63,202 nucleotides of DNA from a virus (Duplodnaviria > Caudoviricetes): IMG/VR virus record IMGVR_UViG_3300010222_000004, positions 1 to 63,202 of that record. The stretch is one strand, 5' to 3'. Both the position numbers and the translations under genes were made by a program. The notes under the pieces were generated by a model. That model was not told the origin of the DNA, ran no database searches, and saw only the letters and a list, made by a program, of their open reading frames with translations. Shown here piece after piece: positions 24,713 to 41,015 of this stretch; within the stretch, counting starts at the first letter, position 1; each line of letters opens with the position of its first letter.

Positions 24713-26266
24713 ATGACGTCGACCTACTGGACGTCGATATCGTCAGCGACGGGCGACAACGCGACCGTTGAGTTGACGACCACGACGACGATCCCGACCG
24801 GGACGGCCATCACGGTCACGCTCTTCCAGGACGACGGGGCGAACGGCACCGACGACACTGGCACCGGGAAGACCGACGCGCTGGGCAACGCGTATGACTA
24901 CAGCGCGAGCGTCACGCTGGCGGGCGGGAGCGGCGAGACGAACTCACTCTCCAGTTTCGACGGCGACGGCAGCACGGACGACTGGTGGCTCAAGCTCGAA
25001 CTCGCGGGCGATGGGAGCGACCCCACACTGGATAGCCCGACGCTCACGTCGTACACGGTCGACACGGCCCCCGGGACGGCGGGCCAGACGGTCAGCGTCC
25101 CCACGTCACAGAGCGGGACCACTGCCAGCCCTGCGCCGACCGTCACCGCCAGCGGGACGGCGACCGTCGCCACGCCCACCGCAGCGGCCACGCCCGCGAG
25201 CCCGGCCCCAACGCTCGCCGGCACCGGCACTGCCACGGTCAGCCCCAGCGTCTCACCGGCGGCCCCGCAGGCACCCAGCCCCAGCGTCACCGCCAGTGGC
25301 GCGGCGACCGTCACCACGCCCGTCTCGACGACGAGTGCGACGACGCCCACTCCGACTGTTGCCGCCAGCGGGACGGCGACGGTGACCACGCCCGTCTCGA
25401 CGACGAGTACGACGACGCCCGCTCCGACCGTCTCCGGGGCCGGTGCGGCAAGCGTTACGACGCCGACGAGTGCGACGACGAGTGCGACGACCCCGCTTCC
25501 GACCGTCACCGGGGCTGGTGCGGCGAGCGTTACGGTGTCGCCGAGCGTCACGACGGCAACGACGCCCGCCCCCAGCGTCACGACCACCGGCGCGACCGTC
25601 AACGCTCCCGTTTCGGCCACGACCGCCATCACACCATCCCCGACCGTCTCGGGGAGTGGGGCGACGAGCGTGTCGGCACCGCCGGGCGTTACGACGACAA
25701 CGACGCCCGCTCCCAGCGTCACGACCGCCGGTACAACCGTCACCACGCCCGTCTCGACGACGAGTGCGACGGCGCCGTTCCCGGCCGTGTCCGGGACTGG
25801 CGCGGCAAGCGTTACGACGCCGCCGAGCGTCACGACGACAACGACGCCCGCTCTCAGCGTCACGACCACCGGCGCGACGGTCACCACGCCCGTCTCGACG
25901 ACGACCGCCATCACACCATCCCCGACCGTCTCGGGGAGTGGGGCGGCAAGCGTGTCGGCGCCCGTCCCCGTTGGGACGGCGAGCACCCCGGCTCCCACCG
26001 TCTCCGGCACGGGAAGTGCGACCGTCGGCTCGCCCGTCTCCGTCACGAGCGCCACGACGCCGCTGCCCACGGCGACCGGCACGGCGAGCGCGACCGTCGC
26101 GACACCGACGAGCACCACGAGTGCGGCCACGCCCACCCCGTCGCTCGCCCTCGGGAGTTTCGCCACGGTCACGCGCACTGCTGCTCGAACCCTCGCGTGG
26201 GGTGCGTCGGTACAGCGCACCCTGGGCTGGGACGTGACCGTCTCGCGGACGCTCTCTCTTGATTAA
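24713..26266 (+). CDS. Thr/Ser/Pro-rich repetitive fibre/adhesin
   Basis: About 23-aa repeats TVxTPVSTTxATTPxPTVxGxG; 141-nt higher-order period. Confidence 0.75.
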   Translation: MTSTYWTSISSATGDNATVELTTTTTIPTGTAITVTLFQDDGANGTDDTGTGKTDALGNAYDYSASVTLAGGSGETNSLSSFDGDGSTDDWWLKLELAGDGSDPTLDSPTLTSYTVDTAPGTAGQTVSVPTSQSGTTASPAPTVTASGTATVATPTAAATPASPAPTLAGTGTATVSPSVSPAAPQAPSPSVTASGAATVTTPVSTTSATTPTPTVAASGTATVTTPVSTTSTTTPAPTVSGAGAASVTTPTSATTSATTPLPTVTGAGAASVTVSPSVTTATTPAPSVTTTGATVNAPVSATTAITPSPTVSGSGATSVSAPPGVTTTTTPAPSVTTAGTTVTTPVSTTSATAPFPAVSGTGAASVTTPPSVTTTTTPALSVTTTGATVTTPVSTTTAITPSPTVSGSGAASVSAPVPVGTASTPAPTVSGTGSATVGSPVSVTSATTPLPTATGTASATVATPTSTTSAATPTPSLALGSFATVTRTAARTLAWGASVQRTLGWDVTVSRTLSLD

Positions 26267-26268
26267 CT

Positions 26269-26616
26269 ATGCCCCACCGGATCGACCCCTACAACCACCA
26301 CCTCGCCGGCGAGACGCTCGTCTGGGAGCATACGGTCGAAGAGGACGGGAGCGCGAAGGACCTCTCGGGCGCTTCGGTGAACTACTATCTCCTCGCAGAG
26401 CAGGGCGACGCCAACGACGACGCCCTCTTGGACGACTCGGACGCCGACATCACGGCGGCGATCGTCGACGCCGCGAACGGCCGCATCGACGTCACGTTTG
26501 CGAGTGGCGCCACCGACCCCTACGCCGGTCAGTCACTCTGGCAGCGCCTCATCGTCGACGACGCCGCCGGCGACCGAAGCATCTGGCACGGCCCGCTGTA
26601 CGTGGCCCGGCCCTAA
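26269..26616 (+). CDS. BppU-N-like adaptor protein
   Basis: DLSGASV...IVDAANGRIDV; similar to 37870-38214. Confidence 0.6.
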   Translation: MPHRIDPYNHHLAGETLVWEHTVEEDGSAKDLSGASVNYYLLAEQGDANDDALLDDSDADITAAIVDAANGRIDVTFASGATDPYAGQSLWQRLIVDDAAGDRSIWHGPLYVARP

Positions 26617-26617
26617 C

Positions 26618-27004
26618 ATGGTGGTCAAGCACACCTTCGACGGCGACTCGTGGGAGTTCCCTGGCCGCCTCGCTGCCAACGGCGTCGTCGACGGCGACAC
26701 GATCGATGTCGTCCTCGATCTGGGATTCAACACCTGCAAGACGACCCGCCTCCGGCTGTTCGGCGTTGACGCGGGCGAAACCTACGGCGTGTCGCAGGAG
26801 TCCGACGAATATCAGCGCGGCCAAGAGCACGCCGCGTTCGTCGCGGCGTGGCTCCGCGACGCCGACGACGGCTCGGACTGGCCGCTCAACGTCACGACAC
26901 TGAAAGAGGCGGGCAAATACGGCCGCTGGGTATCAATAGTTCACCGGCGAACGGACGGCGAGTCACTCACGTCGGCCCTGATCGACGAGTTCGACGATGT
27001 CTGA
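26618..27004 (+). CDS. Thermonuclease (SNase-like) family protein
   Basis: VVDGDTIDV...RLRLFGVDAGE...GKYGRW. Confidence 0.85.
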   Translation: MVVKHTFDGDSWEFPGRLAANGVVDGDTIDVVLDLGFNTCKTTRLRLFGVDAGETYGVSQESDEYQRGQEHAAFVAAWLRDADDGSDWPLNVTTLKEAGKYGRWVSIVHRRTDGESLTSALIDEFDDV

Positions 27005-27185
27005 GTCGGATCCCTACGGCGGGCCGCCGGGCGCCCCGGCGACGACCCTCTCCGCCCCCAAGGCCGCGATCGTGCTGGCGTCGTTCCGGAACGACACGCA
27101 GACGATCATCTACGATCCGGATCCGGACTGCGACGAGGGGCGCTGGATCGCGTCGACCGCCGCGACCGACCTGCCGATTCGATAG
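26997..27185 (+). CDS. Small hypothetical protein
   Basis: TIIYDP...WIAS. Confidence 0.5.
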   Translation: MSESDPYGGPPGAPATTLSAPKAAIVLASFRNDTQTIIYDPDPDCDEGRWIASTAATDLPIR

Positions 27186-27197
27186 AGTATCACACTA

Positions 27198-28508
27198 ATG
27201 CGCGAGCCATACCCCGACGCGTCGACGATCGACGCCCAGACGACGCCGTTCGACGCCGTCAAAACCGCCGCCCAGGGGGCCCAGTTTGCGATCGACCCAT
27301 CGCAGGGCCTGACCCGCACCCGCTATGGCTGGTACAGTAATGGCGCGCTGTTCGACGACGCGCTGGTCAGCGCCGCCCCGGGAGAGATCACACTCGCGAC
27401 GACGGCAACCGTGTCGGACGCCGCCCGCATTCGGTCGGCCTTTGCCGGCCAGTACGTCTCTCAGGCGGTCGCCCAGCCCGGGCTGCGGGTGGCCGTCGAC
27501 GACGCCAACGTCACGTTCACCGACGGCCAGGCGGCGCTCTCGCATGGCGCCATCTATTGCGGCGCGTTCTGGTGGGACGGGGCGGCCGCGCAGGTCGACA
27601 CGGGGATCGGACTCCGGCTCGACGCCAGTGGCCTCGCGGCGATCTGGAAATCCGACGGCTCGCACTACGGTGCCTCGCCGGTCCCCCAGTCGGACTGGTC
27701 GACGGACCGCCTCGACGGCGGTCGGGACCGCAACCCCTCGGGCATCCGGCTGGATCCGTCCGACGGCTGGATCTACAACTTCCCGTTCACGTGGTATAAC
27801 GCGGGCCGGCTCGCCGTCGGCGTCGTCGACCCCGCCACCGATAAGTTACACATCGCCCACGAGTTCGTCCCGCGCGAGGCCGAGCCGGGGGCGCCGAGCC
27901 TGTCGACGGCCAACCTCCCGGTGCAGGTGGCCGTCCGCAACGACGGGACGGCCGATCCCCTCGAAGCGCGCCTCGGCGGGATGCAATACTCGCTGTATGG
28001 CGGCCAGGGCGCCCTTGAGCAGCGGGATACGTACGCCGCGGCCGACGCCGTGGCCGTGACGACCGACACGCCGAGCCCGCCGGACCCGATTGCGACGCCG
28101 GGCGACCCGCTGTATGCCGTCCGCCGCGAGCCCGGCGCCGACGACATGGAACTGTCACTGCGGGAGTTCGCCGCGACGCCCGATGGCGGCGACATCACGA
28201 TCACGCTCTGGGACGAGTTCGACCCCGCGACGGCGCTGACCGATGAGGCCTTCGAGCCGACCTTCCGCGCGAACAGTACGGAAACGAAAACGGAGTTCGA
28301 CCGCTCGGCGACCGCCTACTCGCCGGCGACGGCGGCCTTCCGCGGGCTGCGCCCCGTCGACTCGGGCGCGGTCAACGAGGACGTCGTTACACAGCTCGAC
28401 ATCGAGGAGCGCATCCCCATCGGCGCGGCCCGGGTCGTAGCCGCGACCGATGACGACAGCACCGGCCCGACCGTCGACTACGTCGCGACGACGGTTGAGG
28501 GCTACTGA
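27198..28508 (+). CDS. Putative virion protein (beta-rich)
   Basis: Long acidic ORF in structural operon. Confidence 0.65.
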   Translation: MREPYPDASTIDAQTTPFDAVKTAAQGAQFAIDPSQGLTRTRYGWYSNGALFDDALVSAAPGEITLATTATVSDAARIRSAFAGQYVSQAVAQPGLRVAVDDANVTFTDGQAALSHGAIYCGAFWWDGAAAQVDTGIGLRLDASGLAAIWKSDGSHYGASPVPQSDWSTDRLDGGRDRNPSGIRLDPSDGWIYNFPFTWYNAGRLAVGVVDPATDKLHIAHEFVPREAEPGAPSLSTANLPVQVAVRNDGTADPLEARLGGMQYSLYGGQGALEQRDTYAAADAVAVTTDTPSPPDPIATPGDPLYAVRREPGADDMELSLREFAATPDGGDITITLWDEFDPATALTDEAFEPTFRANSTETKTEFDRSATAYSPATAAFRGLRPVDSGAVNEDVVTQLDIEERIPIGAARVVAATDDDSTGPTVDYVATTVEGY

Positions 28509-28525
28509 CCGCACCCCCGACAGCC

Positions 28526-28642
28526 ATGATGACACTGGCACTCGCAACGCCCTGCGCCATCACAGCCTTTGGTGTGTTCGCCGCCGGCTACGTGTTCGCC
28601 GTCGGGACGCTGCTGACGCTGTTGTGGCTTGGCCGCTCCTAA
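28526..28642 (+). CDS. Small single-TM protein
   Basis: MMTLALATPCAITAFGVFAAGYVFAVGTLLTLLWLGRS. Confidence 0.4.
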   Translation: MMTLALATPCAITAFGVFAAGYVFAVGTLLTLLWLGRS

Positions 28643-28645
28643 TTC

Positions 28646-29161
28646 ATGACCGACGACATCTGTGGCGAACCGGCCGATGGCGGCGGTCTCTGCCAACTTG
28701 CGGCAGGATGGGGCCGTGATGAAGACGATGGTCCGTGCAAATACCACGCCGACACGCGACCGGTTCCGCCGAAGCTCACCGAACAACGCATCGCGAGTAT
28801 GGAGGCAGATCTTCTCAAAGGCCACTCGGTCCGTGCCGCGTGTGGAAGCAACGACATTTCAAGGGATACGCATTACCGCTGGCTTCGGCTAGCAAACGAG
28901 CTACCCGACGATGAGACATCCGAGCGGGCCGAGCTGCTATCTGACTATTCTGACAGGGTTACGCACGCGCGCGACGCTGGCGATCACTACCTGGAAAAGC
29001 ATATCGTCGACATTGCGATTGAGAACGGCGACGCCGCAACGTTACTTCGATACTTGCAGGAACGGCGGGGCGGGGAGGCAAGCCAAGAGTCCGAGGACAT
29101 GGGTCCACTTGCCCTCATCCCAAGCGACGAGCAGATCGCGGAGATGATTGCCAATGAGTAG
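28646..29161 (+). CDS. Terminase small subunit
   Basis: Directly upstream of TerL; Zn-knuckle plus HTH (GHSVRAAC...ISRDTHYRWL). Confidence 0.75.
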   Translation: MTDDICGEPADGGGLCQLAAGWGRDEDDGPCKYHADTRPVPPKLTEQRIASMEADLLKGHSVRAACGSNDISRDTHYRWLRLANELPDDETSERAELLSDYSDRVTHARDAGDHYLEKHIVDIAIENGDAATLLRYLQERRGGEASQESEDMGPLALIPSDEQIAEMIANE

Positions 29162-30353
29162 TGCGACTTCCCAGGCCGACGGGGCGCTCGCCCCGTACCA
29201 TGAGCAACTCCCGTTTCTTCGCTCGGACCGGCGATACTATGCGTTTGTGTCCGGCATCGGGGCCGGCAAGACGGTCGCCGGTATCTTGCGGATGCTTAAA
29301 AATGTCGACGAGTGGAACGCTGGCGAAACTGGCTTCGTTGTCGCTCCAACCGTCCCCTCGCTCCGGACGACGATTATCCCCGAGCTAGAAAAGTGGGGCA
29401 TCATCGATCGGTGTGAGTTCAACCGAACCGAAAAGCGGCTTGACTTCCCCAATGGTTCGACCGTCTTTCTAGACTCGGCCGATAACGACCGGAAGATCGA
29501 ACGGTTACGCGGCCCGTCGATCTCGTGGTTCTGGATCGATGAGGCGGCGACCGTCAACAAGCGGGCGTGGGACATTCTCATCGGCCGGCTTCGTGAGGGA
29601 CAATACCGGAATGCGTTCATCACCACGACGCCGAAGGGCAAGAACTGGGTGTACGACCGGTTTGTGGACGGCGATCCGGACGATGTCCGCGCCATAACGG
29701 GCGTCGCCTCGCACGAAAACGTCCACCTGCCCAATGACTATCAGTCGATTACGGACGAATACGGCGGGCGGTTCCACGATCAAGAAGTCAAGGGCCGCTT
29801 CGTTGCGTTTTCCGGCCTCGTCTACCCGTGGTTTGGCGAAGATCACCTCGTCGCCCCGGTCGACCCAACCGAAACGCGGTGGGACGAGACGATTTACGGC
29901 GTCGACTGGGGGCACAACAACCCGAGTGCGATCCTCGCGTGGATTCGCCAGGGTGAGACGTGGACGGCCGTCGAGGAGTACTACGAGACCCGCCGGACCG
30001 TCAACGACCACGCCCGCGCCCTCGCGGACATGCAGGAGCGCTGGGGGCCGGGGCGGGTCTACTGCGACCCTGCCGAGCCGGCGAACATCGAGCAGTTCCA
30101 GCGCGATGGCCTGAACGCCGTCGCTGCCGAGAACGATGTCACGCCGGGGATTCAGCACGTCTCGGCCCAACGCGACCGCCTCCGAGTCGCTGAGACGTGC
30201 CAGAACCTCCGCAATGAGTTTTCACAGTACCAATACAAGGACGACGACTCGGATACGCCCGACAAAGTCAACGACCATCTGATGGATAGTGTACGCTACG
30301 CGCTCTTTTCGCACGCGAATCGGGCGGGCGGCGGCTTCCTTATTTCCCAGTAA
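29154..30353 (+). CDS. terL: Terminase large subunit
   Basis: GIGAGKT, WIDEAA, TTTPKG, YGVDWG, DHLMDSVRY. Confidence 0.95.
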   Translation: MSSATSQADGALAPYHEQLPFLRSDRRYYAFVSGIGAGKTVAGILRMLKNVDEWNAGETGFVVAPTVPSLRTTIIPELEKWGIIDRCEFNRTEKRLDFPNGSTVFLDSADNDRKIERLRGPSISWFWIDEAATVNKRAWDILIGRLREGQYRNAFITTTPKGKNWVYDRFVDGDPDDVRAITGVASHENVHLPNDYQSITDEYGGRFHDQEVKGRFVAFSGLVYPWFGEDHLVAPVDPTETRWDETIYGVDWGHNNPSAILAWIRQGETWTAVEEYYETRRTVNDHARALADMQERWGPGRVYCDPAEPANIEQFQRDGLNAVAAENDVTPGIQHVSAQRDRLRVAETCQNLRNEFSQYQYKDDDSDTPDKVNDHLMDSVRYALFSHANRAGGGFLISQ

Positions 30354-30359
30354 CATCCC

Positions 30360-31880
30360 ATGAGTCTCCTCGACAGTCTCCTCCGTCGCACAGACGACGA
30401 CACCGAGCAACTCGCCCCGGACGACCCCAGCCCCCGCGGCGAGGACCGCGACGGCGGCTTTCTCGTCAGCCTCGTTAGTGGTGGCCGGTCCACCACCGGT
30501 GTCGACGCCATCGCCACGGACACGGCCCACCCGCCGGCCGGCATGAAGCGAGCCCACGAGGACTATTTCTATCACCCGCTGGTCACTGCCAGCTACAATC
30601 TCTTCGCCGAGACGGTCCTCGAGCCGGGCTACCGGATCACTGCTACCATCGACGGCGGGACTGACGAGGAGATGCAAGAGGCACTGCGCCTGTGGGCGAG
30701 CAACGCCGCGATTCACGCGGGGATGGTCAACCAAGACCTCGGCGTCATCCTCGAGGATGTCGTCACACTCCGGCCGAGCTACGGGACGCAGTTCATGGAG
30801 GTCGTTGGGACCGAGAGCGATCCACAGGCCGCTGCGGCGCTGATGCTCCACAATCCCGCGACGTTCAAGCAACTCCACCGCGAGGACCAAGCGATCCTCG
30901 TCCAGCCGGACGACGACGTCGCGCGCGACCATCCCACGACGCCCAGCGGCGAGGCGGCGGCCTATGTGCAGTATGCCGATTCGCTGTCGGGCTACCGAGA
31001 CCAGGACGCGATCCCGTTCGCACAGTCCGACCTCGTCAAGTTCGTCCACGACGCGCCGCCGGGGGCGCTGTGGGGGCGGGCCATCTACGAGTCAATCGGC
31101 GACCATATCGACAGCCTGCGCGAGAAGTTCAACGACCGGCATTTCGCCATCCGGCAGACGGGCTATCCCCACCGAATCTATTCCTCCGAGACATGGACGA
31201 AAGATGAGGCGAAAGACTACGCCGACGCGCACAAGAGCGGGGAGGAGGTCTCGGCGGGTCCGTACACCGATGAGGACTATCAGGAGAGTTTCGCCGGCCG
31301 CGTCGACTTCGTCCCCGAGAACGTCGAAGTCCAGACGGTCACGGGTGACGTGCCGGACATCTCGGACGCCATTCGGGACGACATTGAGCACATCTTCGCG
31401 GTCCTCCCGCTCGCCAAACTCAAAATCGCCTACGAGGAGGACATCAACCAGTTCGTCGCCGAGCCCCAGATGGAGAAGGACTCGCTGCTCATCGAGGACG
31501 AGCGGCAGTACCTCCGGCGCAAGTTCGAGCCGATCGTTGAGCGCAAGGCCAACGAACTGGCGGGCGGGGACTACGACGGCGAAATTCGCTTTGCCATCGA
31601 GGCCTCTCCGGAGACCAACCCGCTCCAGCGCGAGGACTTCCCCGCCGAGAACTTCTCGACGGCGGCGACGGCCATCAACGACCTGTATGCGGCGGGCGCA
31701 CCGCCGGAGTTGATCGCCATGCTCCTCTCGAACGCGGGCGTCGATCTCGAAGCAGCGCGCGAGGAGTTCGGCTTCACGCCCGACGACCTCGCCAGTCTCG
31801 ATGTCCCCGAGGACAGCGAGGCCGGCCAGGCGCAACGGGAGGCCATTGAGACTGCGCCTGACGTCGAGGACGCGGACTGA
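30360..31880 (+). CDS. Portal protein
   Basis: About 500 aa directly after TerL. Confidence 0.8.
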   Translation: MSLLDSLLRRTDDDTEQLAPDDPSPRGEDRDGGFLVSLVSGGRSTTGVDAIATDTAHPPAGMKRAHEDYFYHPLVTASYNLFAETVLEPGYRITATIDGGTDEEMQEALRLWASNAAIHAGMVNQDLGVILEDVVTLRPSYGTQFMEVVGTESDPQAAAALMLHNPATFKQLHREDQAILVQPDDDVARDHPTTPSGEAAAYVQYADSLSGYRDQDAIPFAQSDLVKFVHDAPPGALWGRAIYESIGDHIDSLREKFNDRHFAIRQTGYPHRIYSSETWTKDEAKDYADAHKSGEEVSAGPYTDEDYQESFAGRVDFVPENVEVQTVTGDVPDISDAIRDDIEHIFAVLPLAKLKIAYEEDINQFVAEPQMEKDSLLIEDERQYLRRKFEPIVERKANELAGGDYDGEIRFAIEASPETNPLQREDFPAENFSTAATAINDLYAAGAPPELIAMLLSNAGVDLEAAREEFGFTPDDLASLDVPEDSEAGQAQREAIETAPDVEDAD

Positions 31881-31895
31881 CTTCTCCCACGTTTC

Positions 31896-32789
31896 ATGCC
31901 GAAGTTCAAGGGCGGCCCGGCGGATATGGCGACCCGGCAACTCGAATACGCTCGGGCGCTGCGGGCGCCGTATATCGCCATCCGAGCGGAGCTGCGCCGC
32001 GGCATCGTCGACCGGGGCATCTTCGACGGCGTCGTCGGCGCACAGTCCGACGGCCCGTCGGGCGCGGTCTCCGAGCAACTCGCGCCCTCCTTCGACCCGG
32101 ATGACCTCACACCGGATGACTTCCGGTTCGACGACCCGGCCGGCGCCGACGAGCGGTTCATGGACTGGCTCCGGCGCCAGCAAACGCGGGGCGTCCTTGA
32201 GACGATCAGCCGGGGCGACAACATCTACATCCGGCGGGCGCTGTCGGATGGCGACCGCTTCGCGCTTGCCCGGCTCCGCGAGAACAACATCTCGGTCCAG
32301 GGCAACGCCCTCCCGGCAGAGGCCTTCCGGATCCGGACGGCCGGCTCGCAGGCCGCCTATGCCGCGATGGAGTTCAACCGGCCGCTGCCGGCGTCGACGG
32401 TGAAGCTCCTGTTCGATCGCAATTTCGACCAGCTCGAAAAAATCACGACCGACACGGCGGGGCAGATCAACCGCGTCCTCTCGGAGGGCCTCATTGCCGG
32501 GCAGAACCCCCGCGACATCGCCGCTGACATCGCCGACCGCATCGACGCGGTCAGCTACGATCGGGCGACGACAATGGCCCGGCACGAAATTCTCTACGCG
32601 CACAACGAGAGCGCGAAAGCACGCTACCGCCAGCAGGGCGTCGCCCGCGTGAAGGTCCTCGGGACGTCGCCCTGCGATATTTGCGACCCGTATGTCGGCA
32701 ACGAGTACCTACTCACCGATCTCCCGGAGGGCGGCCCTCCCTTCCATCCAAACTGTGTGGGATCGATAGCTCCAGCATTGGGGAGATAG
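31896..32789 (+). CDS. Minor head morphogenesis protein (Mu gpF / SPP1 gp7-like)
   Basis: RATTMARHE...CDIC...PPFHPNC. Confidence 0.88.
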   Translation: MPKFKGGPADMATRQLEYARALRAPYIAIRAELRRGIVDRGIFDGVVGAQSDGPSGAVSEQLAPSFDPDDLTPDDFRFDDPAGADERFMDWLRRQQTRGVLETISRGDNIYIRRALSDGDRFALARLRENNISVQGNALPAEAFRIRTAGSQAAYAAMEFNRPLPASTVKLLFDRNFDQLEKITTDTAGQINRVLSEGLIAGQNPRDIAADIADRIDAVSYDRATTMARHEILYAHNESAKARYRQQGVARVKVLGTSPCDICDPYVGNEYLLTDLPEGGPPFHPNCVGSIAPALGR

Positions 32790-32823
32790 AAGGCCTTATG
32801 GTTGTGTATGCACTATCTACCCT

Positions 32824-33639
32824 ATGCCTTCGGAAGCGGAGTTGGAGTTCATCAGGGAGAATCACTTCTGCCTCTCAAACGAAGAATTGGCCGAAGAGTT
32901 AGACGTGGCCCATAGCACAATCTCGCGCTGGAAACGCAGCCATCTTGACTTGCCCCGGGCTTGCGAAAAGAACCGCGTCGAATACGAATACGGCGATTCC
33001 ATTTGTGAGATTTTGGACAGGCTCCACAATGAGGAGTTAATGACCACGTATGAGATGGCCGACGAATTGGGCGTGGCCCGGAAGTCAATCGAACGGTGGT
33101 GGGAAGACTGCCCTGGTGTGAAAAAGCGAAGCCAGTCCGAGGCCACGGAATTGGCCTATAGTCAAATGTCCGAAGAGGAGCGCATGAAGCAAGTGAAGGC
33201 AGCGCATGAAACTCTCCGAGAGAATTATGCGAATGGGGAAGGCACGCTCCAAAAATGGCACCGAGATAACCCCGAACGGGCAAAGCAGCAGGCCCGCGAA
33301 GCCGCGGCGCTCGGTACTCCTGCCCGTGAGCAAAACGGGATGGAGGGCGTCACGGGCCAAGACCACCACGGCTGGACCGGCGGAAAGTCGCTGTATGACG
33401 CTCTCAAGAAACAGCTTCCGGGGCGGTCGTGGTACTCTATCCGGGAGACTGAGCGTGCCGATCAGTGCTACAAATGCGGATGTTCCGACGGCCGCTTGAG
33501 TATCCACCACATCGTCCCCGTAATGGCCGGTGGAACGAACGGGGAATACAACCGAATGACGCTTTGTGAGGAGTGTCACGGCGTTGTCGAGGCGTTCACT
33601 TGGGACGTCTTCGCTGACCCCGTCTACGACGTTTCGTAG
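32824..33639 (+). CDS. Free-standing HNH endonuclease with N-terminal HTH repeats
   Basis: CYKC...HHIVPVMAGGTNGEYNRMTLCEECH; more AT-rich than flanks. Confidence 0.88.
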   Translation: MPSEAELEFIRENHFCLSNEELAEELDVAHSTISRWKRSHLDLPRACEKNRVEYEYGDSICEILDRLHNEELMTTYEMADELGVARKSIERWWEDCPGVKKRSQSEATELAYSQMSEEERMKQVKAAHETLRENYANGEGTLQKWHRDNPERAKQQAREAAALGTPAREQNGMEGVTGQDHHGWTGGKSLYDALKKQLPGRSWYSIRETERADQCYKCGCSDGRLSIHHIVPVMAGGTNGEYNRMTLCEECHGVVEAFTWDVFADPVYDVS

Positions 33640-33642
33640 CGC

Positions 33643-33685
33643 TCCAAACTGTGTGGGGTCGCTAGCCCCAGTCGTTCCCTCCTAA
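33643..33685 (+). pseudogene. Orphan second copy of the minor-head gene 3' end (PNCVGSLAPVVPS*)
   Basis: 33643-33671 is 26/29 identical to 32747-32775. Confidence 0.85.
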
Positions 33686-33697
33686 CCCGAGATTACC

Positions 33698-34033
33698 ATG
33701 CCACCGATCATTGACATCGACACGACACTCGACGCCAGCGGCGGCAGCAACGACACCGTCACCCGGGCCTACCAGATCCACAACGACAGCGGGCTCTTGC
33801 ACGTCGTTCTGCGCGGCGCATCAACCAGCGCCGACGTGTACGTGGAAACCCGTGGCGCCGAGGACATGGACTGGGCCGACTACCTCAGCCCGACAACGGG
33901 CGCCGACCCGTCGTCGGAGTACGTGGACGTGACGGGGGTCGACCTCGCGGACGTCCCCGAACTCCGCCTCCGAATCGTCAATCAAGACGGCACGAACACG
34001 GCCGACGTCCGGGCCGTCGTGCGGATGGACTGA
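33698..34033 (+). CDS. Hypothetical head-module protein
   Basis: Acidic beta-rich ORF. Confidence 0.65.
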   Translation: MPPIIDIDTTLDASGGSNDTVTRAYQIHNDSGLLHVVLRGASTSADVYVETRGAEDMDWADYLSPTTGADPSSEYVDVTGVDLADVPELRLRIVNQDGTNTADVRAVVRMD

Positions 34034-34046
34034 CACAGGAACACTC

Positions 34047-35405
34047 ATGAATACATCTCTCTACGAGCAACTCTCGCATGGTGGGGCGGCCACCGTTGGC
34101 GCTGCTGCCGATACCCCGCCGACCGTCCGGATCGTCCCGATCGCCGAAGGCGAGATCACGGAAGGCCAGTCCGGCGAGCGGGCCGTGTTCGGCCAGGATG
34201 CCCTCCGGCAGGCGGCCGAGTCGGGCGCCCTCGACGGTGCGACCATCGTCAAAGGCGAGGGCGGAGAAAACCCACATTTCCCGATGGACGAGCAGGTTCC
34301 GCCGGAGCACGTCCTCGGCCGGGTCGACTCGTGGACGTACGAGGCGGGCGTCGGCCCCGTCGGCACGGCACAGCTCGCCGACGGGGAGATGGCCCGCCGG
34401 ATCGACCTGGACTTACTCGACGTGAGCGCCGATCTACTCCGGCGGCTGGGCGACTACGACGAAACTGCCGATGCCCGCCGGGTCGACGAGATCGTCGCCA
34501 TGCCCCGGATCACGGTGCTCGAGCAGGGCGCCGCGCCGGGCGCATCGATCGAGACGGCCGACGCGGAGGCGCTGGCCGCCTCCGATGCCGGGCAGTTCCT
34601 TCTTGCGGACAGCGCCGCCGACGGCGACGCCGACCAGCACAGTCCTTCTGACGAGGGGGCGGAATCCTCCGCAGACGACCGCGACACCGACACAACGGAC
34701 AACTCAACACACATGTCAGACGAGGACGACGTGACGAAGGCCGAACTCCGCGAGCAGCTCGCGGCAGCGAAGGCCGAACTCGAACAGACTGAACAGGAAC
34801 TCGAACAGACGGAGGAGAACCTCAAAGCCGAGCGCGAAGAGGCCGAAGCACTTGAGGAGGATCTTGAGGAGACTGAAGCGGAACTCGAGAAAACCGAAGC
34901 GGAACTTGAGGAGAAAGACGAGCAGGTAGACGGCTTCAATCAGGCCCTCGCCCACCGCCTCGCCGGGGATGACGACCGCTTCGACCCCGACGAACTGGCC
35001 GAGCGCTACTCCACCCAGGAACTCGCCGACAAGGTCGTTCAGAGTGAGGACCTCGCCGACGACGAGGAGCGCACGGCCGACGATTTCGACCCCGTTGCGG
35101 CCGTCCAAGATCACCTCGCCGCGTCGCCGGCCCACCGCGGTACGCCCACCGGCGAGCCCGGCGACGGTGGCGGCGGGAGTGCTGGCGGCCAGCCCACCGA
35201 GGAGCAACTCGCGGCCGCCAACGATTGGGCCTACGAGGCGCTCACCGGCGACGACATCGTGCAAGCCAGCGGCGAGGAGCAACTGTCGCCGCGCGAACTC
35301 GCCGCGGAGAAGACGGGCGTCGACCCGGCGACGTGTGACTCGCGCCAGGAGTTCCTCCGCAAGCTGAACAGCGACGCTGCCAGCGGCACGGGGGGTGAGG
35401 CCTGA
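34047..35405 (+). CDS. Prohead protease-scaffold protein
   Basis: Position before capsid genes; globular N-terminus then long acidic coiled coil. Confidence 0.75.
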   Translation: MNTSLYEQLSHGGAATVGAAADTPPTVRIVPIAEGEITEGQSGERAVFGQDALRQAAESGALDGATIVKGEGGENPHFPMDEQVPPEHVLGRVDSWTYEAGVGPVGTAQLADGEMARRIDLDLLDVSADLLRRLGDYDETADARRVDEIVAMPRITVLEQGAAPGASIETADAEALAASDAGQFLLADSAADGDADQHSPSDEGAESSADDRDTDTTDNSTHMSDEDDVTKAELREQLAAAKAELEQTEQELEQTEENLKAEREEAEALEEDLEETEAELEKTEAELEEKDEQVDGFNQALAHRLAGDDDRFDPDELAERYSTQELADKVVQSEDLADDEERTADDFDPVAAVQDHLAASPAHRGTPTGEPGDGGGGSAGGQPTEEQLAAANDWAYEALTGDDIVQASGEEQLSPRELAAEKTGVDPATCDSRQEFLRKLNSDAASGTGGEA

Positions 35406-35857
35406 TGCCGGTCGCACACCTCGAGCCGGGCGCTCGCGTCTCGGTCGAACTCGTGGCCGACTCGTCCGGGAACGTCGCCGCCGCCAACGACCTCGTCGAG
35501 ATTGCGGGCGAGACGGCGTCGTATCCGCAAGTCTCGGTCGTCGAAAACGCCGGCGCGGGCGTGGCCGTCCTCGAACGGCTCCCCGAGGACTACGACGAGA
35601 CCACGACCTACGGCGCCGGCGAGGTGGTCGGTGAGACAACCGTCCGCCTGCGCCACGGCGTCGACTGGGTGCCCGTCGACGGGGCCTACACGCCAACGGC
35701 GGGCGACCAAGTCGTCTCCGACGCGGGGGGCGACATCCGGGCGTACGATGCGGCCGGTGGCGACACGGCGGACATGCTCCTCGGCCGGGTCTGGCTGACC
35801 AACGCGGCCGGCACCGAGTACGTGTCCGGGATGGCGGCGGTCATCCGCCATCGCTGA
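35405..35857 (+). CDS. Capsid decoration/minor capsid protein
   Basis: 150 aa between scaffold and MCP. Confidence 0.65.
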   Translation: MPVAHLEPGARVSVELVADSSGNVAAANDLVEIAGETASYPQVSVVENAGAGVAVLERLPEDYDETTTYGAGEVVGETTVRLRHGVDWVPVDGAYTPTAGDQVVSDAGGDIRAYDAAGGDTADMLLGRVWLTNAAGTEYVSGMAAVIRHR

Positions 35858-35934
35858 CTCCCGGCGCGCCAGCGCCCTGGAGCGCGGTGTATCGCACGCT
35901 GACTAACCGATTCTAGATCACCAATCCACAACAG

Positions 35935-37059
35935 ATGCCAGAAGCAACCGTTCGAAACGCAGACCTCCTGAAGCCGGAAGTCATCCGCAACCAGATGGTC
36001 GATAAGGCCGACCAGATAGAGCGGATTGAGATGGGCGATGGCCAGCAGTACGCCAGCGCCATGTCGGAGTTCCCGCTGATCAACCTCGATAACCCGACTG
36101 AGCACTACTACACCTACGACGGCGCCACGGCGCGGATGCACCCGACGTCGTACGACGCCGAGTCGCCCACTGGGGAGATCGATCTGCCGTCCAAGGAGGA
36201 CATCACCATCCAGTCGTACAAGGAGAAATTCAACCCCCAGAAGGGCGTCGAAACGCATCTCTCGGGAATCTCCCCCGGCGCGTTCTCTAGAGCAGTCTCA
36301 AAGCTCCAACTGAAGATTTTCTTCACCCGCGAGCAGATCGCCTGGCGTGGCGACGAGGCCGTGGATGGCCTCATCGGCCAGTTCGGGGGGAGCGCCCACC
36401 CGGACATCGACAGCGATCACGTTATCGACGTCGCGACCGCCTGGTCGGATTCGGCCAACGCGACGCCGTACGACGACGTCACGAGTCTCGCCTTCGAGAT
36501 CGTCAACAACGGCTATCTCGGCGGCAACCAACAGGTCCTGCCCAACATCTACATGGGCGCGGAGACGCTGCGCGACCTCAAGCAGACCGACGACATGGAG
36601 GACCGCCTCCCGTCGACGAACTACCAGCAGGTCACCAGCGAGGCCCTCGCGAACCTCATCACCGAGAACGTCAACAACATCCTGCCGGTGATGGTGTACG
36701 CACCCCGCGAGGACGCCGACGGCAACTTCATCGACGCGAACGGCAACGAAGTTGACGACGCCGGCAACGCGGCCATGGACAACATCCTCGAACCATACGA
36801 CCCCAGTTCGGGGACCGTCCAGCGCAACGTCGTCATCGGGCGGCCGGGAGCGTCGTCGGCGTTCTTCCCGTGGTTCCTCGACCGACTGCAGGAGCGCGAG
36901 GGCGAGGTGCCCGGCGACATGTCGATCGACCCCAACAACGGCTTCTTCACGCAGGTGTGGAACAGCCCCGACCCGATCGCGACGTATCTCGCTGCGAAGC
37001 AGGAGGTGGGATTCACAATCCAGCGTGGCGAGAATTGGGCCCTGCTCCGCGGGGTCTGA
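35935..37059 (+). CDS. Major capsid protein (HK97 fold)
   Basis: 374 aa; position; WSDSANATPYDD motif. Confidence 0.85.
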   Translation: MPEATVRNADLLKPEVIRNQMVDKADQIERIEMGDGQQYASAMSEFPLINLDNPTEHYYTYDGATARMHPTSYDAESPTGEIDLPSKEDITIQSYKEKFNPQKGVETHLSGISPGAFSRAVSKLQLKIFFTREQIAWRGDEAVDGLIGQFGGSAHPDIDSDHVIDVATAWSDSANATPYDDVTSLAFEIVNNGYLGGNQQVLPNIYMGAETLRDLKQTDDMEDRLPSTNYQQVTSEALANLITENVNNILPVMVYAPREDADGNFIDANGNEVDDAGNAAMDNILEPYDPSSGTVQRNVVIGRPGASSAFFPWFLDRLQEREGEVPGDMSIDPNNGFFTQVWNSPDPIATYLAAKQEVGFTIQRGENWALLRGV

Positions 37060-37065
37060 GCGCCC

Positions 37066-37467
37066 ATGACCGAGCTTCGGTGGACGCGCGACACCGTCTT
37101 CGCCGACCACCGCCGTGGCGTCGTCGCCCGCGGCCCAGGCGTCTACGACGTGCCCGAGGCGGCCGTCGAGGAGTATCTCGGCCACCCTTGTGGCGGCTGG
37201 GAGCGCCCCGAGGATCCCGAGGACGAGGACGACGGCGACGATACCGACGCGAACGACACCGCCGTCAACGACGAAGCCGACACCGAGGACGAGCGAAGCG
37301 AGTTCGACGTCGACGCGTTCCTTGATCGGACACCGATGGAGGATGTCGTCGCCGACATCGCCGCCGGCGTGACCGATGGTCATCTCGACGCCGTCGCCGA
37401 GGCCGCCGAGCGTAAGGGCGTTCAGGAGGCGGTCAAGGACCGCCGCGCGGCGCTGTCAGAGGGCTAA
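37066..37467 (+). CDS. Hypothetical protein
   Basis: Acidic ORF after MCP. Confidence 0.65.
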   Translation: MTELRWTRDTVFADHRRGVVARGPGVYDVPEAAVEEYLGHPCGGWERPEDPEDEDDGDDTDANDTAVNDEADTEDERSEFDVDAFLDRTPMEDVVADIAAGVTDGHLDAVAEAAERKGVQEAVKDRRAALSEG

Positions 37468-37470
37468 CCA

Positions 37471-37854
37471 ATGCCGTTCCCGTACGTCACGCCAAAGGCG
37501 TTTCGCGACGAGTACGCTCCGGACGCGACTGACCTCGGGTTCGAATCGGATGCGGATTACAACGCATTGCTTGATCGGGTTCTCAAACAGGAGTCCGCTC
37601 GCGTTGAGAGCGACGAGTACGCCAACGCTGAGTGGCGCGACGCCCTGACGGTCCCGCCAGTCATCTACGAGGCGGTCGTCCGGCTTGCACGCGTCCGCAT
37701 CGATAGCCGGAGTGCTGACATCCTCTCCTCGGAGCGTGCCCCGGATGGTCGTCAAGAGAGTTACCGCCCACCGGCGGATATCCGAGCCGACGTCCGTGAG
37801 GAACTCCGCGCCGCCGGCTACGGCAGCGGCGACTTCTGGACCGTCACGCGCTAA
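37471..37854 (+). CDS. Head-tail adaptor protein
   Basis: YVTP...helical...VPPVIYEAVVRLA; position. Confidence 0.65.
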   Translation: MPFPYVTPKAFRDEYAPDATDLGFESDADYNALLDRVLKQESARVESDEYANAEWRDALTVPPVIYEAVVRLARVRIDSRSADILSSERAPDGRQESYRPPADIRADVREELRAAGYGSGDFWTVTR

Positions 37855-37869
37855 TCACCAGTCCAACAC

Positions 37870-38214
37870 ATGACATTCGAAACCACCTATCGAAAGTCGG
37901 GCGACATCCGCCCGCCATTAGAGGCAACGATCTCCCGGCCCGAAGACTCGGGGCCGGTGGACCTGACCAACGCGAGTTCGGTGTCGGTCTACGCCCGTGC
38001 CCCTGACGGGACGATGGAGATCACCGACGCGGCGGCGACGATCGACGACGCCGCCAACGGCGCGGTCTCCTACTCCGCGGGCTCGGGCGAACTCGCCGTC
38101 GCTGGCGAGTACCAAATCGAGTGGAAGGTGTACTGGGCCGGCGACGACACCGACTCCGAGCGGTTCCCGAAGAAGAACTACCAGAACGCGAAGGTCCAGA
38201 CCGAACTGAGCTAA
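37870..38214 (+). CDS. BppU-N-like protein
   Basis: KSGDIRPPLEATI...VDLTNA...DAANGAVSY...AGEYQIEWKV...FP. Confidence 0.7.
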   Translation: MTFETTYRKSGDIRPPLEATISRPEDSGPVDLTNASSVSVYARAPDGTMEITDAAATIDDAANGAVSYSAGSGELAVAGEYQIEWKVYWAGDDTDSERFPKKNYQNAKVQTELS

Positions 38215-38256
38215 CGCGTCCGTCATCAGCGCCGCCTCGCTCCCCTATTCCTCCGG

Positions 38257-38628
38257 ATGCTCCGCCGCCCCGACACTCACGAGTTGCGCGTCTATTCGCT
38301 CGACGAGAGCACACGCGAGTACCAGCTCACGGCGACGCTGTCGGTGCAGGCGTATCCGCCGGGGACGGAGTCGGCGACGGGGGCCCGCCAGACGATGGGC
38401 GGGCTCGCCGAAGACGCCGACATGGTCGCGGGGACGACCGACGCGGCCGCCGACGCGATCGCTGCTGGCCAGTCGGTCGTCTTGGCGCGCCGCGATGGGA
38501 GTGCTGCTCGCGCCTATCTCGTCGAGAGCGTAACGCCACTTACAGGCCGGTACGGCGGCGTGGATTACTGGGCGCTCGGCCTCGCCCGCGAAGAGGGCGC
38601 CGACCTATCGCTGTTCCCCACTCCCTGA
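38257..38628 (+). CDS. Head closure/neck protein candidate
   Basis: Position and size. Confidence 0.55.
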   Translation: MLRRPDTHELRVYSLDESTREYQLTATLSVQAYPPGTESATGARQTMGGLAEDADMVAGTTDAAADAIAAGQSVVLARRDGSAARAYLVESVTPLTGRYGGVDYWALGLAREEGADLSLFPTP

Positions 38629-38642
38629 GCCGTCCCACAATA

Positions 38643-38805
38643 ATGGATATCAACATCGACTGGAAGACGGGTAAGTCACCCCGAGCGTTCGCCGGCAAGA
38701 TGGCGGCGTTCAAGCGCCGCCTTGACGACGAACTTGAGGCAGCAATGCAGGACGCGGTCACGTGGGTCGAAGCCGACGCGAAAGAGCGCGCGTCGGTAGA
38801 GAACC
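38643..38805 (+). pseudogene. Truncated 5' copy of HK97 gp10-like gene
   Basis: MDINIDWKTGKSP...ELEAAMQDAVTWVEADAKERA parallels N-terminus of 39539-39931; 24-nt exact match. Confidence 0.85.
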
Positions 38806-38868
38806 CTTGCCTTGGCAACTGTCCAATGGTAACACAAGAACTAACCGTCCCGGTACCATGGCAAATCC

Positions 38869-39504
38869 ATGGAGAAGGCGTACGAAGACCGAGAAACGCT
38901 CCGGCGGCTATACCATAGGGAACAAATGACGATGTCTGAGATGGCGGAGGAGTTGGAGTGTAGCCACACGACCATCCACAAGTACATGGACAAACACGGC
39001 ATCCAAACACGAAGCTCGGCCGAGTCCCGAGAACTCCGCGGTACAGGGACAAACGGGTGGGGCGGTGGTCCTCATCGAGACCCCGAATGGCTCCGCACTC
39101 GGTATCGGGATGAAAAATTGTCCATCGCCGAAATGGCCGATGAAGCCGGTGTTTCGGAGGCGACCATCATTCGTCAGATGGAACGGCACGGAATCGATCG
39201 GCGCCCAGGGCACGTCACCCACGTCCTCCGCAACCCCGGCGCGGGCTTCGTTCAAGCGGATGCAAGAGGGTACGAAATGGTCAAGCATTCCGTGGGAGAC
39301 CATACGTACAACTATCCCATTCACCGGCTCTTGGCGATTGCCAAATACGGCTATGATGCCGTAGAGGGTGCTGTCGTACATCACCGAAATTCTGTCAAAT
39401 GGGACAATCGTCCTGCGAACCTCGAACTCCTTGAGAGCCAATCTAAACACGCAAAGCACCATGACACTTCCCGGCAACGCGACGACCGCGGGCGGTTTGA
39501 GTAG
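38869..39504 (+). CDS. Free-standing HNH endonuclease (HNH_3/I-HmuI-like) with two HTH repeats
   Basis: IHRLLA...VVHHRNSVKWDNRPANLELL...HAKHH. Confidence 0.9.
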   Translation: MEKAYEDRETLRRLYHREQMTMSEMAEELECSHTTIHKYMDKHGIQTRSSAESRELRGTGTNGWGGGPHRDPEWLRTRYRDEKLSIAEMADEAGVSEATIIRQMERHGIDRRPGHVTHVLRNPGAGFVQADARGYEMVKHSVGDHTYNYPIHRLLAIAKYGYDAVEGAVVHHRNSVKWDNRPANLELLESQSKHAKHHDTSRQRDDRGRFE

Positions 39505-39538
39505 CCTGCCGGCCTTCCCCCCCCACCTAGGCCCACTA

Positions 39539-39931
39539 ATGGTTGACATCAATGTCGACATTGAGTGGAAACGTGGCCGGTCGCCGAAGTCGATGATCGC
39601 CCGCCTTGGGGCGTTCGAAAAACGCCTCGACAAAGAACTTGAGGCAGCAATGCAGGACTCGGTACAGTGGGTCGAACGAGATGCGAAGGGACGTGCACCC
39701 ACGGACACCGGGGCTCTGCGAGCATCTCTGGCAGGCATGGTCAAGCCGACGGTGGACGACGCCGTCAAAGGCTATGTTGGGTCGAACTTAGACTATTCAA
39801 AATTCCAAGAATTCGGCACGTCGAAGATGGGGGCCCAGCCCTACCTTCGGCCAGCAATCGAAGCGAACCGCGACCGGATCAAAGAACGGTTTGAGCAAGC
39901 CGTCCACGACGCGGCCCGCGGCCTGTTCTGA
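39539..39931 (+). CDS. HK97 gp10-like tail completion protein
   Basis: APTDTGALRASL...EFGTSKMGAQPYLRPA. Confidence 0.9.
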   Translation: MVDINVDIEWKRGRSPKSMIARLGAFEKRLDKELEAAMQDSVQWVERDAKGRAPTDTGALRASLAGMVKPTVDDAVKGYVGSNLDYSKFQEFGTSKMGAQPYLRPAIEANRDRIKERFEQAVHDAARGLF

Positions 39932-39940
39932 TCCTCAGTC

Positions 39941-40420
39941 ATGGCCTTCGACGAGTCAACCGACCTCACGCCTGGTCGGCCAGCGCATGCTGTCGCGCAG
40001 GCCATCGACACGCTCCGCGGCGACGCGGAGCTCGTCGACTGGCTTGGCGGCGACAGCGATGTGATCATCGACGGCCACGGAAGCGGGGACGTCCCCCCGC
40101 GAGCGCTGGCCGTCGAGGACGTCGTCGGCGGGTCGGCCCAGTCGGGGCAGGTCGAGACGAGCCGCATCACCATCCAAGTGACGCCACTCGTCGGCCGGTC
40201 GGTCTACCGGGCAGAACCGGACCGATACTTGTCGGCTGTCCGCGACCGCGCCATCGAAGTACTCCGCCGGGACGGCATCGGGCCGGGCTATCGGTATCTC
40301 GGCTCGACGGATGACCTCGCGTTTCCCGAACCACAGACGGCCGACGACATCGACGCCGTCATGCAGCACATGGGCCGGGTCCAGTTCGTCGCCGAACTGG
40401 TTGCGAACGACCTGCCATAG
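39941..40420 (+). CDS. Tail terminator candidate
   Basis: Position between gp10-like and tail tube. Confidence 0.6.
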   Translation: MAFDESTDLTPGRPAHAVAQAIDTLRGDAELVDWLGGDSDVIIDGHGSGDVPPRALAVEDVVGGSAQSGQVETSRITIQVTPLVGRSVYRAEPDRYLSAVRDRAIEVLRRDGIGPGYRYLGSTDDLAFPEPQTADDIDAVMQHMGRVQFVAELVANDLP

Positions 40421-40508
40421 CGGCATCGCCACACACCTACCGAGTCCGGGGCGACAGGACTCGCGGCTGGCCGCCCGGAGCGGCCATTCCTGACATACAC
40501 ACAGACCA

Positions 40509-41003
40509 ATGGCAGTTAGTGATTTCAACCCCGAGAATCCGCTTGCCGGCGCCTATGCGTTCATCGGCGTCAGTGACGATCTCTCGGTGACCGACCCGAC
40601 GATCAGCTGGATCGCCTACCGTAGCGACGAGATCAACTTGAGCCAAGATTGGGAGAACGCAGAGTGGTCCTTCCCCGAGCAGGTCGGCACCGTCCGCCAG
40701 TACCTGCACAATTCTCGGGATCTCGAGTTCGCGCTCGCGGCGCACGTCGGTATGTCCGAGCTCAAGGACCTCGGCATCGTCGACGCGAACGACGAGCTGA
40801 AAGACACCGTCACCAAGGATGTCCGCATCAAGGTGTTCAAAAACGTTCCGGACGACGTCGACACGGCGACGGCGGACATGATCGTCGACGGCTACAGTGC
40901 CGAACTGACGATGACGGAGCTCAATCTTGCCCAGGATGGCGGCACGTCCTCGATGGCCGCCTATATCAACGGCAAGGTTGAGATCTACGAGAACAACGCC
41001 TAA
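40509..41003 (+). CDS. Major tail (tube) protein
   Basis: 164 aa beta-rich, precedes chaperone and tape measure; no sheath gene seen. Confidence 0.7.
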   Translation: MAVSDFNPENPLAGAYAFIGVSDDLSVTDPTISWIAYRSDEINLSQDWENAEWSFPEQVGTVRQYLHNSRDLEFALAAHVGMSELKDLGIVDANDELKDTVTKDVRIKVFKNVPDDVDTATADMIVDGYSAELTMTELNLAQDGGTSSMAAYINGKVEIYENNA

Positions 41004-41015
41004 CCAACCCAATTC

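Follow-up and report, generated by a model that had tools for sequence, protein, structure and literature searches.

A putative homing endonuclease gene associated with a replacement gp10-like allele in a probable tailed virus of haloarchaea

The DNA analysed here (the window, taken at its full length) is a 63.2 kb virus record from IMG/VR, IMGVR_UViG_3300010222_000004, in which a gene for an HNH endonuclease lies between an incomplete and a complete copy of a gp10-like gene. We refer to the incomplete copy, a 5′ stub, as copy A, to the nuclease gene as HNH#2 (38869-39504) and to the full gp10-like gene as copy B; a second nuclease gene in the window, HNH#1, occupies 32824-33639. Our best explanation, to which we give a probability of roughly 0.7, is that HNH#2 is a free-standing homing endonuclease gene that travels with copy B, a complete foreign gp10-like allele. 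According to this model, the unit of HNH#2 and copy B would have entered a resident A-type gp10-like gene, the first 50 codons of which would have been left behind as a dead stub, and the protein would now be made from copy B with its own start codon. Neither an intron nor an intein would be required. The model draws on the anatomy of the site, on presence and absence among relatives, on the different allelic origins of the two copies, on foreign composition and on recurrence elsewhere, all of which are observed.

All of the features described below lie on the plus strand of the window. The upstream structural gene (38257-38628; 123 amino acids (aa)) is an open reading frame (ORF) that matches no Pfam or PHROG family. 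The ATG of copy A stands at 38643, 14 nucleotides (nt) past the end of this gene, and the 50 codons of the stub (38643-38792) read MDINIDWKTGKSP...ELEAAMQDAVTWVEADAKERA. Homology to copy B ends with Ala50 (38790-38792), directly before the codons that specify P-T-D-T-G in copy B. The frame then stays open for 41 unrelated residues, overlapping the start of HNH#2 in another frame, to a stop at 38916-38918; the resulting 91-codon frame (38643-38918) is probably a by-product, its product having no family match, and the stub by itself likewise matched no family in Pfam or PHROG. A leader of 76 nt (38793-38868; G+C content 0.51) with no similarity to copy B precedes HNH#2, which encodes 211 aa in a different frame from the stub, and a spacer of 34 nt (39505-39538) runs from the stop of HNH#2 to the start of copy B. 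Copy B (39539-39931; 130 aa) starts from its own ATG at 39539 and reads MVDINVDIEWKRGRSP...DAKGRAPTDTG... up to its last position at 39931. It matches PF04883 (HK97-gp10_like) with 43 bits (cut-off 21.4) over residues 18-93 and phrog_5 (tail completion/Neck1) with an E-value of 5.8e-23, and is presumably the working copy of the gene. The two copies have in common an exact 24-nt repeat, GAACTTGAGGCAGCAATGCAGGAC, which encodes ELEAAMQD and occurs in the window exactly twice (38730-38753 and 39635-39658); it was matched in 0 of 100 dinucleotide-preserving shuffles even with 2 mismatches allowed. Over 78 nt the copies are 79.5% identical (blastn E 8.6e-16), and their proteins are 51% identical over 55 aa (E 5.6e-17), or 56% for the 50-codon stub. 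Past the stub break their similarity is at chance level, with the observed local score reached by 1783 of 2000 shuffles. We also considered a remnant of the upstream gene's end in the 45 nt before copy B, and dropped it as its similarity to the region upstream of copy A was reached by 1454 of 2000 shuffles. An earlier note on this DNA had described much of this layout, namely an HNH endonuclease between two copies of a gp10-like gene, an N-terminal copy that stops at a RAPxDTG motif, a full gene with a diverged start after the nuclease, and an identical stretch at 38730 and 39635, and the description holds on each point.

The state of the locus without the nuclease gene is seen in the one close relative that we found, an IMG/VR virus record of 16186 nt (G001). 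It is 94-95% identical to the window at the nucleotide level over 26010-28509, 29814-31875 and 33668-38628 (4711/4973 = 94.7% for the last of these), and 88% identical over 39625-41004. G001 has 79 nt in place of the window's 996 nt at 38629-39624 and 128 nt in place of the 1024 nt that contain HNH#1 (32644-33667), so both HNH genes are missing from it. Its gp10-like gene is single and uninterrupted (128 aa), with no duplicate and with an ATG that overlaps the upstream stop, in agreement with the earlier proposal that the HNH gene was inserted in a gp10-like gene. The left edge of the differing region is sharp: identity stays at 85-88 of 90 positions per bin through the upstream stop codon at 38628 and then ends abruptly, the blastn block ending exactly at 38628. 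It is back at 39625, and the ELEAAMQD box of copy B begins 10 nt further on. In the bins at 39659-39958, the 3′ part of copy B is identical to G001 at 287 of 300 positions, about the same as the flanks. Further downstream, between 39959 and 41004, identity changes abruptly from patch to patch: it is about 78% at 39959-40200, rises to 97-100% at 40200-40500 and is about 72-87% thereafter, apart from one bin at 97%. Past 41004 the two genomes have nothing detectable in common. The patch at 39625-39958 was considered as an HNH-specific conversion tract and set aside as not diagnostic, equally sharp patches being found further downstream.

Copies A and B stem from different allelic lineages, and not from a duplication in place, as judged from segment identities. 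The stub was compared with the homologs of copy B (n = 72), one of which, the full-length P0003 (128 aa), is 80% identical to it at the N-terminus. By segment, the N-part of the stub matches P0003 at 23 of 29 positions, copy B at 11 of 29 and the G001 protein at 8 of 29, and it is because of this difference between 79% and 38% that we assign the copies to separate lineages. Copy B and the G001 protein, a comparison between two close genomes, agree at 13 of 30 positions in the N-part, then at 21/21 and 75/77 (96/98 after ELEAAMQD). There are therefore three unlike N-termini, those of A, of B and of the 'L' type in G001, joined to one common body with the switch at ELEAAMQD, and a recent in-place duplication is thereby excluded.

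Composition at third codon positions (GC3) was compared with a backbone set of 13 genes (2843 codons; range 0.74-0.89, pooled 0.846). HNH#2 (135/212 = 0.64, z -8.4) and copy B (88/131 = 0.67, z -5.5) both fall below every backbone gene, and the 3′ part of copy B taken separately gives 67/102 = 0.66. With 39/50 = 0.78 (z -1.3), the stub by contrast resembles the backbone. By composition, then, the whole of copy B looks imported and not merely its 5′ end. The idea of a replacement 5′ end, as put forward earlier, is supported, with one qualification: the N-part of copy B does belong to another allele (11/29 against copy A), but by GC3 the foreign DNA would take in the entire gene. In G001, the first 38 codons of the gp10-like gene have a GC3 of 0.84 and the other 90 codons one of 0.71, and the gene appears to be chimeric, with a backbone-like start joined to a foreign body. 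Such a chimera might have arisen if a stub and a full gene had recombined at their ELEAAMQD boxes, with loss of the nuclease gene between them, or else if a cut had been repaired and the nuclease gene not taken up.

The arrangement recurs within the same structural module at a phage Mu F-like head gene (31896-32789; 297 aa; PF04233, 34.2 bits), which is followed by HNH#1, a second free-standing endonuclease gene encoding 271 aa with helix-turn-helix (HTH) repeats and a PF01844 HNH domain. Beyond it, 42 nt (33644-33685) survive from the former 3′ end of the Mu F-like gene, reading PNCVGSLAPVVPS and a stop codon, the first part of which repeats 32747-32775. The gene in its current form ends ...PNCVGSIAPALGR followed by a stop, and its last ~49 codons are unlike those of G001; similarity to G001 breaks off at 32643 and resumes at 33668, and the remnant tail is identical to the end of the gene in G001. 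Towards HNH#1 the identity of the Mu F-like gene to G001 falls, per 60 nt, through 1.00, 0.98, 0.90, 0.82, 0.72 and 0.82. The insert is flanked by a 29-nt direct repeat (32747-32775 and 33643-33671; 89.7% identical). The last 49 codons have a GC3 of 34/49 = 0.69, against 220/249 = 0.88 for the remainder, and HNH#1 has 187/272 = 0.69. Low GC3 is thus common to both nuclease genes and to the gene parts that adjoin them, which therefore share a foreign signature. On these features we identify the site as a second gene-end replacement in the window. The two nucleases are of different subfamilies (HNH_3 for HNH#2, PF01844 for HNH#1), as had been suggested, and the HTH repeats, which the earlier note had seen in both, are the only part that they share (41% over 49 aa).

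Outside the window, flanks of 22 HNH genes of the family were examined for duplication with a same-strand, composition-corrected test at the protein level; this replaced an all-frames protein test without composition correction, which was swamped by high-GC low-complexity matches. Flanking duplication was found for three of the 22, namely the gp10-like site and the loci L094 (595-2312) and L093 (on the reverse strand), which represent a single chromosomal locus shared by two haloarchaeal genomes (G247 and G323). The order there is a 5′ stub of a DUF6166 gene, an RHH/ParE-like toxin-antitoxin pair, an HNH_3 gene and a full DUF6166 gene. The stub ends ...SLDLVNHSP, the full gene reads ...SLDLVNHSPSGFEVGY..., and the stop of the HNH_3 gene overlaps the start of the full gene. 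L093 and L094 are 92.9% identical from about position 630 on, that is, the similarity starts near the stub. The general class of gene-end-replacing HTH-HNH elements imagined in the earlier note holds in outline, with the Mu F-like and DUF6166 cases as further examples; only 3/22 HNH genes (2 loci) are so arranged, however, and the class itself was already known.

Among the alternatives, one is an account of the history in which copy B, at least from ELEAAMQD on, is the resident gene, and the stub is a cargo homology arm brought from a previous host, a block of stub, HNH gene and new 5′ end having been inserted between the upstream gene and this resident gene by ordinary recombination. We consider this unlikely, although it gains from several of the data above: the 3′ part of copy B is as close to G001 as the flanks are (287/300), the differing region is bounded exactly by the stop at 38628 and by 39625, 10 nt short of the ELEAAMQD box, and the similarity between L093 and L094 starts near the stub. 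The model published for WHO elements of yeasts, as set out in PMC7282813, also counts the gene fragment as part of the element. The 3′ part of copy B, however, is foreign-like in GC3 (67/102 = 0.66) where the stub is backbone-like (0.78), and the stub occupies the place expected of a native gene, 14 nt past the end of the upstream one. This alternative is, moreover, still a homing-element reading and differs in history only.

Several points weigh against our best explanation. Since the 3′ part of copy B is about as close to G001 as the flanks are, both viruses could have inherited it as resident sequence, with no import. Identity between the two genomes is patchy everywhere downstream (78-100% per bin), so mosaicism in this region is not HNH-specific. 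G001 has the low-GC3 gene part with no HNH gene, and an extra step is therefore needed, either loss by recombination between repeats or co-conversion without the nuclease gene. The 'native' composition of the stub is weak evidence because it concerns only 50 codons and backbone GC3 itself varies from 0.74 to 0.89. The boundary between L093 and L094, where similarity starts near the stub, would fit a stub that travels with the element better than a leftover of the recipient. Only two independent loci stand behind the three HNH genes with flanking duplication, and a gp10-like ORF was present within 1.5 kb in 0/30 chromosomal loci of the HNH family. Finally, HNH#2, whose homing activity we infer, could be inactive or have another role. 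As to the origin of the stub, composition favours the old start of the recipient gene and the L093/L094 boundary favours travel with the element, and the two are compatible once the element exists.

HNH#2 itself looks functional, since it is full length relative to its homologs and has an invariant His/Asn core. It scores 40.3 bits against Pfam HNH_3 (PF13392; cut-off 24.8) over residues 150-191 and matches phrog_7545 ('HNH endonuclease') with an E-value of 5e-48, and several HTH families match two separate stretches, residues 5-45 and 73-112. Homologs of 208-211 aa are 59-63% identical to it, and H171, H172, N174, N180, N184, H194 and H198 are invariant in all nine aligned sequences (9/9). 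Between homologs the number of HTH repeats varies from 2 to about 6, the longer proteins carrying extra HTH repeats and no fused parts of host genes. I-HmuI-type endonucleases (PF13392) likewise join an HNH_3 nuclease domain to a helix-turn-helix DNA-binding part; HNH#2 differs from them in having N-terminal HTH repeats, a C-terminal nuclease and no surrounding intron. No Rfam intron family was detected at E <= 1 in 32500-40100 and the ORF and the stub are in different frames, which together imply that HNH#2 is not carried by an intron and is not an intein. Of 401 sampled Halobacteria genomes, 94 contain matches to a profile of its family at E <= 1e-8, many of the matches covering the HTH or the nuclease part only. 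As a separate observation, one contig (C36 of genome G243, 77996-81976) holds 3-4 family profile matches within about 4 kb, a grouping that recalls the clusters formed by WHO elements; duplication tests of the flanks of this nuclease cluster were negative. A near-identical nuclease gene circulates elsewhere, as a halite metagenome from a different study (run X2) contains a 443-nt contig over 38828-39270 with 10 differences to the HNH#2 region. The only other contig from that run, of 644 nt, covers 38001-38326; none bridges the junctions, and the run is therefore uninformative on the layout in that sample.

There seems to us little chance that HNH#2 has lost its homing activity or always lacked it, being instead a passenger in decay or a nuclease or regulator that the virus has domesticated (for use, for example, in packaging or competition), with the stub as an old scar. 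Tailed phages do have HNH proteins that serve other purposes, and HNH#2 is co-oriented within the late structural operon. Against this, the ORF is intact with an invariant His/Asn core, the gene is missing from a relative whose flanks are ~95% identical, no terminase adjoins it, and a near-identical piece is present in the metagenome of a second study. The HTH repeats, the HNH_3 domain and the pattern of presence and absence are those of free-standing homing endonucleases.

Lower still we would rate an origin in which the nuclease had no part: the gp10-like gene would have undergone a plain partial duplication in tandem, or an illegitimate recombination, and the HNH gene would have landed in the gap later by chance. 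This is the explanation that the earlier note had named as the one that would overturn an HNH-linked origin. The insert is indeed flanked by direct repeats, and phage genomes are generally mosaic, as the window and G001 are elsewhere too. But the copies are far apart in their N-parts (11/29) while copy A is close to P0003 (23/29), G001 has neither a duplicate nor an HNH gene, GC3 differs between the copies, and an HNH gene, a replaced gene end and a remnant are coupled also at the Mu F-like gene and at the DUF6166 locus. A plain tandem duplication does not fit these data. The remaining alternative, that two strains were joined in a chimeric contig, has next to no credibility, because, although the record is a metagenome-assembled viral contig holding a 24-nt exact repeat, the junction between stub and leader (38792/38793) falls outside that repeat, and a separately built Logan contig (7228 nt; made from the same reads of the probable source run and so not an independent sample) covers 38000-40400 with 0 differences, which means that the layout is not peculiar to one assembler.

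The assignment of the window to the tailed viruses of haloarchaea comes from its proteins and its closest deposited relatives, which point to this group. In tblastn comparisons with deposited relatives every match was below 60% identity, with viruses of Halorubrum and Natrinema among the matches, and blastn against deposited phages gave no close relative. Searches of viral contigs with HNH#2 recovered no relative or context, nor was anything recovered with the HNH alignment in metagenome contigs and in genome contigs, or with the window's capsid protein in metagenome contigs. The gp10 alignment gave 73 loci in genome contigs, distant bacterial prophages almost throughout. The comparison with G001 also brought out two unrelated features. 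A 1304-nt block of the window (28510-29813) has no similarity to the 1634 nt found there in G001, and is flanked by blocks that are 94% identical. The first ~157 nt of G001, reverse-complemented, match the window at 25478-25572, 25592-25713 and 25731-25851 with 70-77% identity, and the start of G001 gives a further short inverted match at 25986-26017; this suggests that 25478-26017 is a tandem array with repeats of ~120-140 nt.

Members of the HNH family are also found next to gp10-like genes in a second, unrelated group of viruses. Two loci with flanks about 88-92% identical, L112 (on the same contig as L006) and L113, have different family members, 29% identical to each other, at the same spot directly after the gp10-like gene; their identities to HNH#2 are 52% and 31%, respectively. 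The identity of the two gp10-like genes declines from 52/60 to 30/60 towards the HNH gene and is 56-58/60 just past it. In two further relatives, L114 and L115, there is no HNH gene and the gp10-like gene abuts the next gene. As an observation in its own right, the gp10-like proteins of this group (L112/L006, 1840-2265; L113, ~1950-2371; L114, 2708-2992; L115, 2579-2992) and that of L117 (7212-7622) look circularly permuted: the C-terminal half of the profile comes first, and a (D/Q)TGNL strand motif stands at the C-terminus. In L117, profile positions 76-111 lie at residues 53-88 and positions 38-66 at residues 106-134, and the Pfam model matches with positions 15-51 at residues 98-133. The capsid protein of L117 is 49% identical to that of the window, in which the gp10-like order is nonetheless standard.

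One broader and, taken as a whole, doubtful conjecture is that the HTH-HNH_3 subfamily specifically follows the DNA for the (D/Q)TGxL strand of gp10-like neck proteins across unrelated groups of haloarchaeal viruses, such that a nuclease gene could sit harmlessly just downstream where the motif is at the 3′ end of the gene (as in the permuted L006 group), that only invaders with a whole replacement gene would survive where the motif is internal (as in the window), and that the leftover partial duplications could be raw material for circular permutation of the gp10-like family.

Returning to HNH#2 as a homing endonuclease gene that travels with copy B, a mechanism can be proposed on the model of WHO elements, but as their mirror image at the 5′ end. 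HNH#2 would cut HNH-less, sensitive gp10-like alleles near the R-A-P-x-D-T-G codons, at the A/P boundary, a position that we place there from the end point of the stub only. The break would be repaired from an HNH-bearing genome, the homology arms being supplied on the left by the stub and on the right by the body of copy B, so that the HNH gene and a resistant gene part would be copied in. With repeated events, the gene part next to the HNH gene would turn over and mosaic alleles would arise. Cleavage, the position of the cut, allele specificity and the direction of each historical event are inferred.

The closest parallel is provided by the WHO elements of Torulaspora and Lachancea yeasts, the endonuclease of which, as described by Coughlan and co-workers, cleaves FBA1 alleles that are sensitive to it (Coughlan et al., 2020, eLife; PMC7282813). 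Repair from the element-bearing chromosome swaps the 3′ end of the gene for a resistant one, and the old end becomes a fragment and later a homology arm (PMC7282813). In their described form these elements resemble the window in that an endonuclease gene has a full-length target gene on one side and a piece of that gene on the other, in the discordant histories of two gene parts, and in that no splicing is needed; a further likeness, proposed for the window, is the replacement of one gene end by a resistant allele per integration, with the fragment as homology arm (PMC7282813). They differ in that the WHO proteins are intein-like with a zinc finger, whereas HNH#2 has HTH repeats and HNH_3, in that WHO elements swap the 3′ end of FBA1, whereas here it is the 5′ end, or perhaps by composition the whole gene, so that the fragment lies upstream, and in their setting, a yeast chromosome as opposed to an archaeal virus (PMC7282813). 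Cleavage is shown for WHO6 (PMC7282813) and is a proposal in the case of HNH#2. HNH#2 has no homology to WHO/HO proteins, its Pfam matches being HNH_3 and HTH families only; it would thus work like a WHO element, and is not a member of the WHO protein family.

A second parallel concerns mobile endonuclease ORFs (mORFs), which make gene hybrids at the mitochondrial atp6, atp9, cox2 and nad3 genes of Glomus (Beaudet et al., 2013; PMC3630166); atp6 of Allomyces is a further case cited there. According to that account, these have an inserted foreign gene end, an endonuclease ORF and a displaced native end, much as here, and are read as the result of endonuclease-driven horizontal transfer; the native end matches a close relative and the inserted end is only 64-81% identical to it (PMC3630166). 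The mORFs described there encode LAGLIDADG or GIY-YIG enzymes, are confined to 3′ (C-terminal) ends and reside in organelle genomes, and some are in frame with the host gene, whereas HNH#2 is a separate ORF (PMC3630166). The principle is therefore already published for yeast and for fungal mitochondria, with 3′ ends and other nuclease families, and the window is a well-supported, mirrored example of it and offers no new principle. A narrow literature search returned no account of such a layout for archaeal viruses or for 5′ ends.

Phages have free-standing homing endonucleases of their own, SegF, SegG and MobE among them. The 'intronless homing' of T-even and other phages is documented for SegB (PMC2330249), and in phage ICP1 nuclease genes are found at the boundaries of genetic exchange (PMC10448857). 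As these sources present them, such systems are like the gp10-like site in having a stand-alone nuclease gene beside its target, co-transfer of flanking sequence, nuclease genes that mark recombination boundaries and repeated DNA-binding domains (PMC2330249; PMC10448857). They differ from it in that the nuclease genes are located between genes and, in the text of PMC10448857 (where 'remnant' has 0 occurrences), no gene fragment or carried gene end is described.

If our interpretation is correct, homing in which the element carries its own replacement gene end, documented so far for WHO elements and mORFs at 3′ ends, would take place in archaeal tailed viruses as well. Here, it would involve an HNH enzyme and the 5′ end of an essential virion gene, with two cases in one structural module. 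HNH#2 together with the A-, L- and B-type gp10-like alleles makes up a directly testable pair of enzyme and target, and events of this kind may explain in concrete terms why alleles switch so sharply in the virion genes of related viruses.

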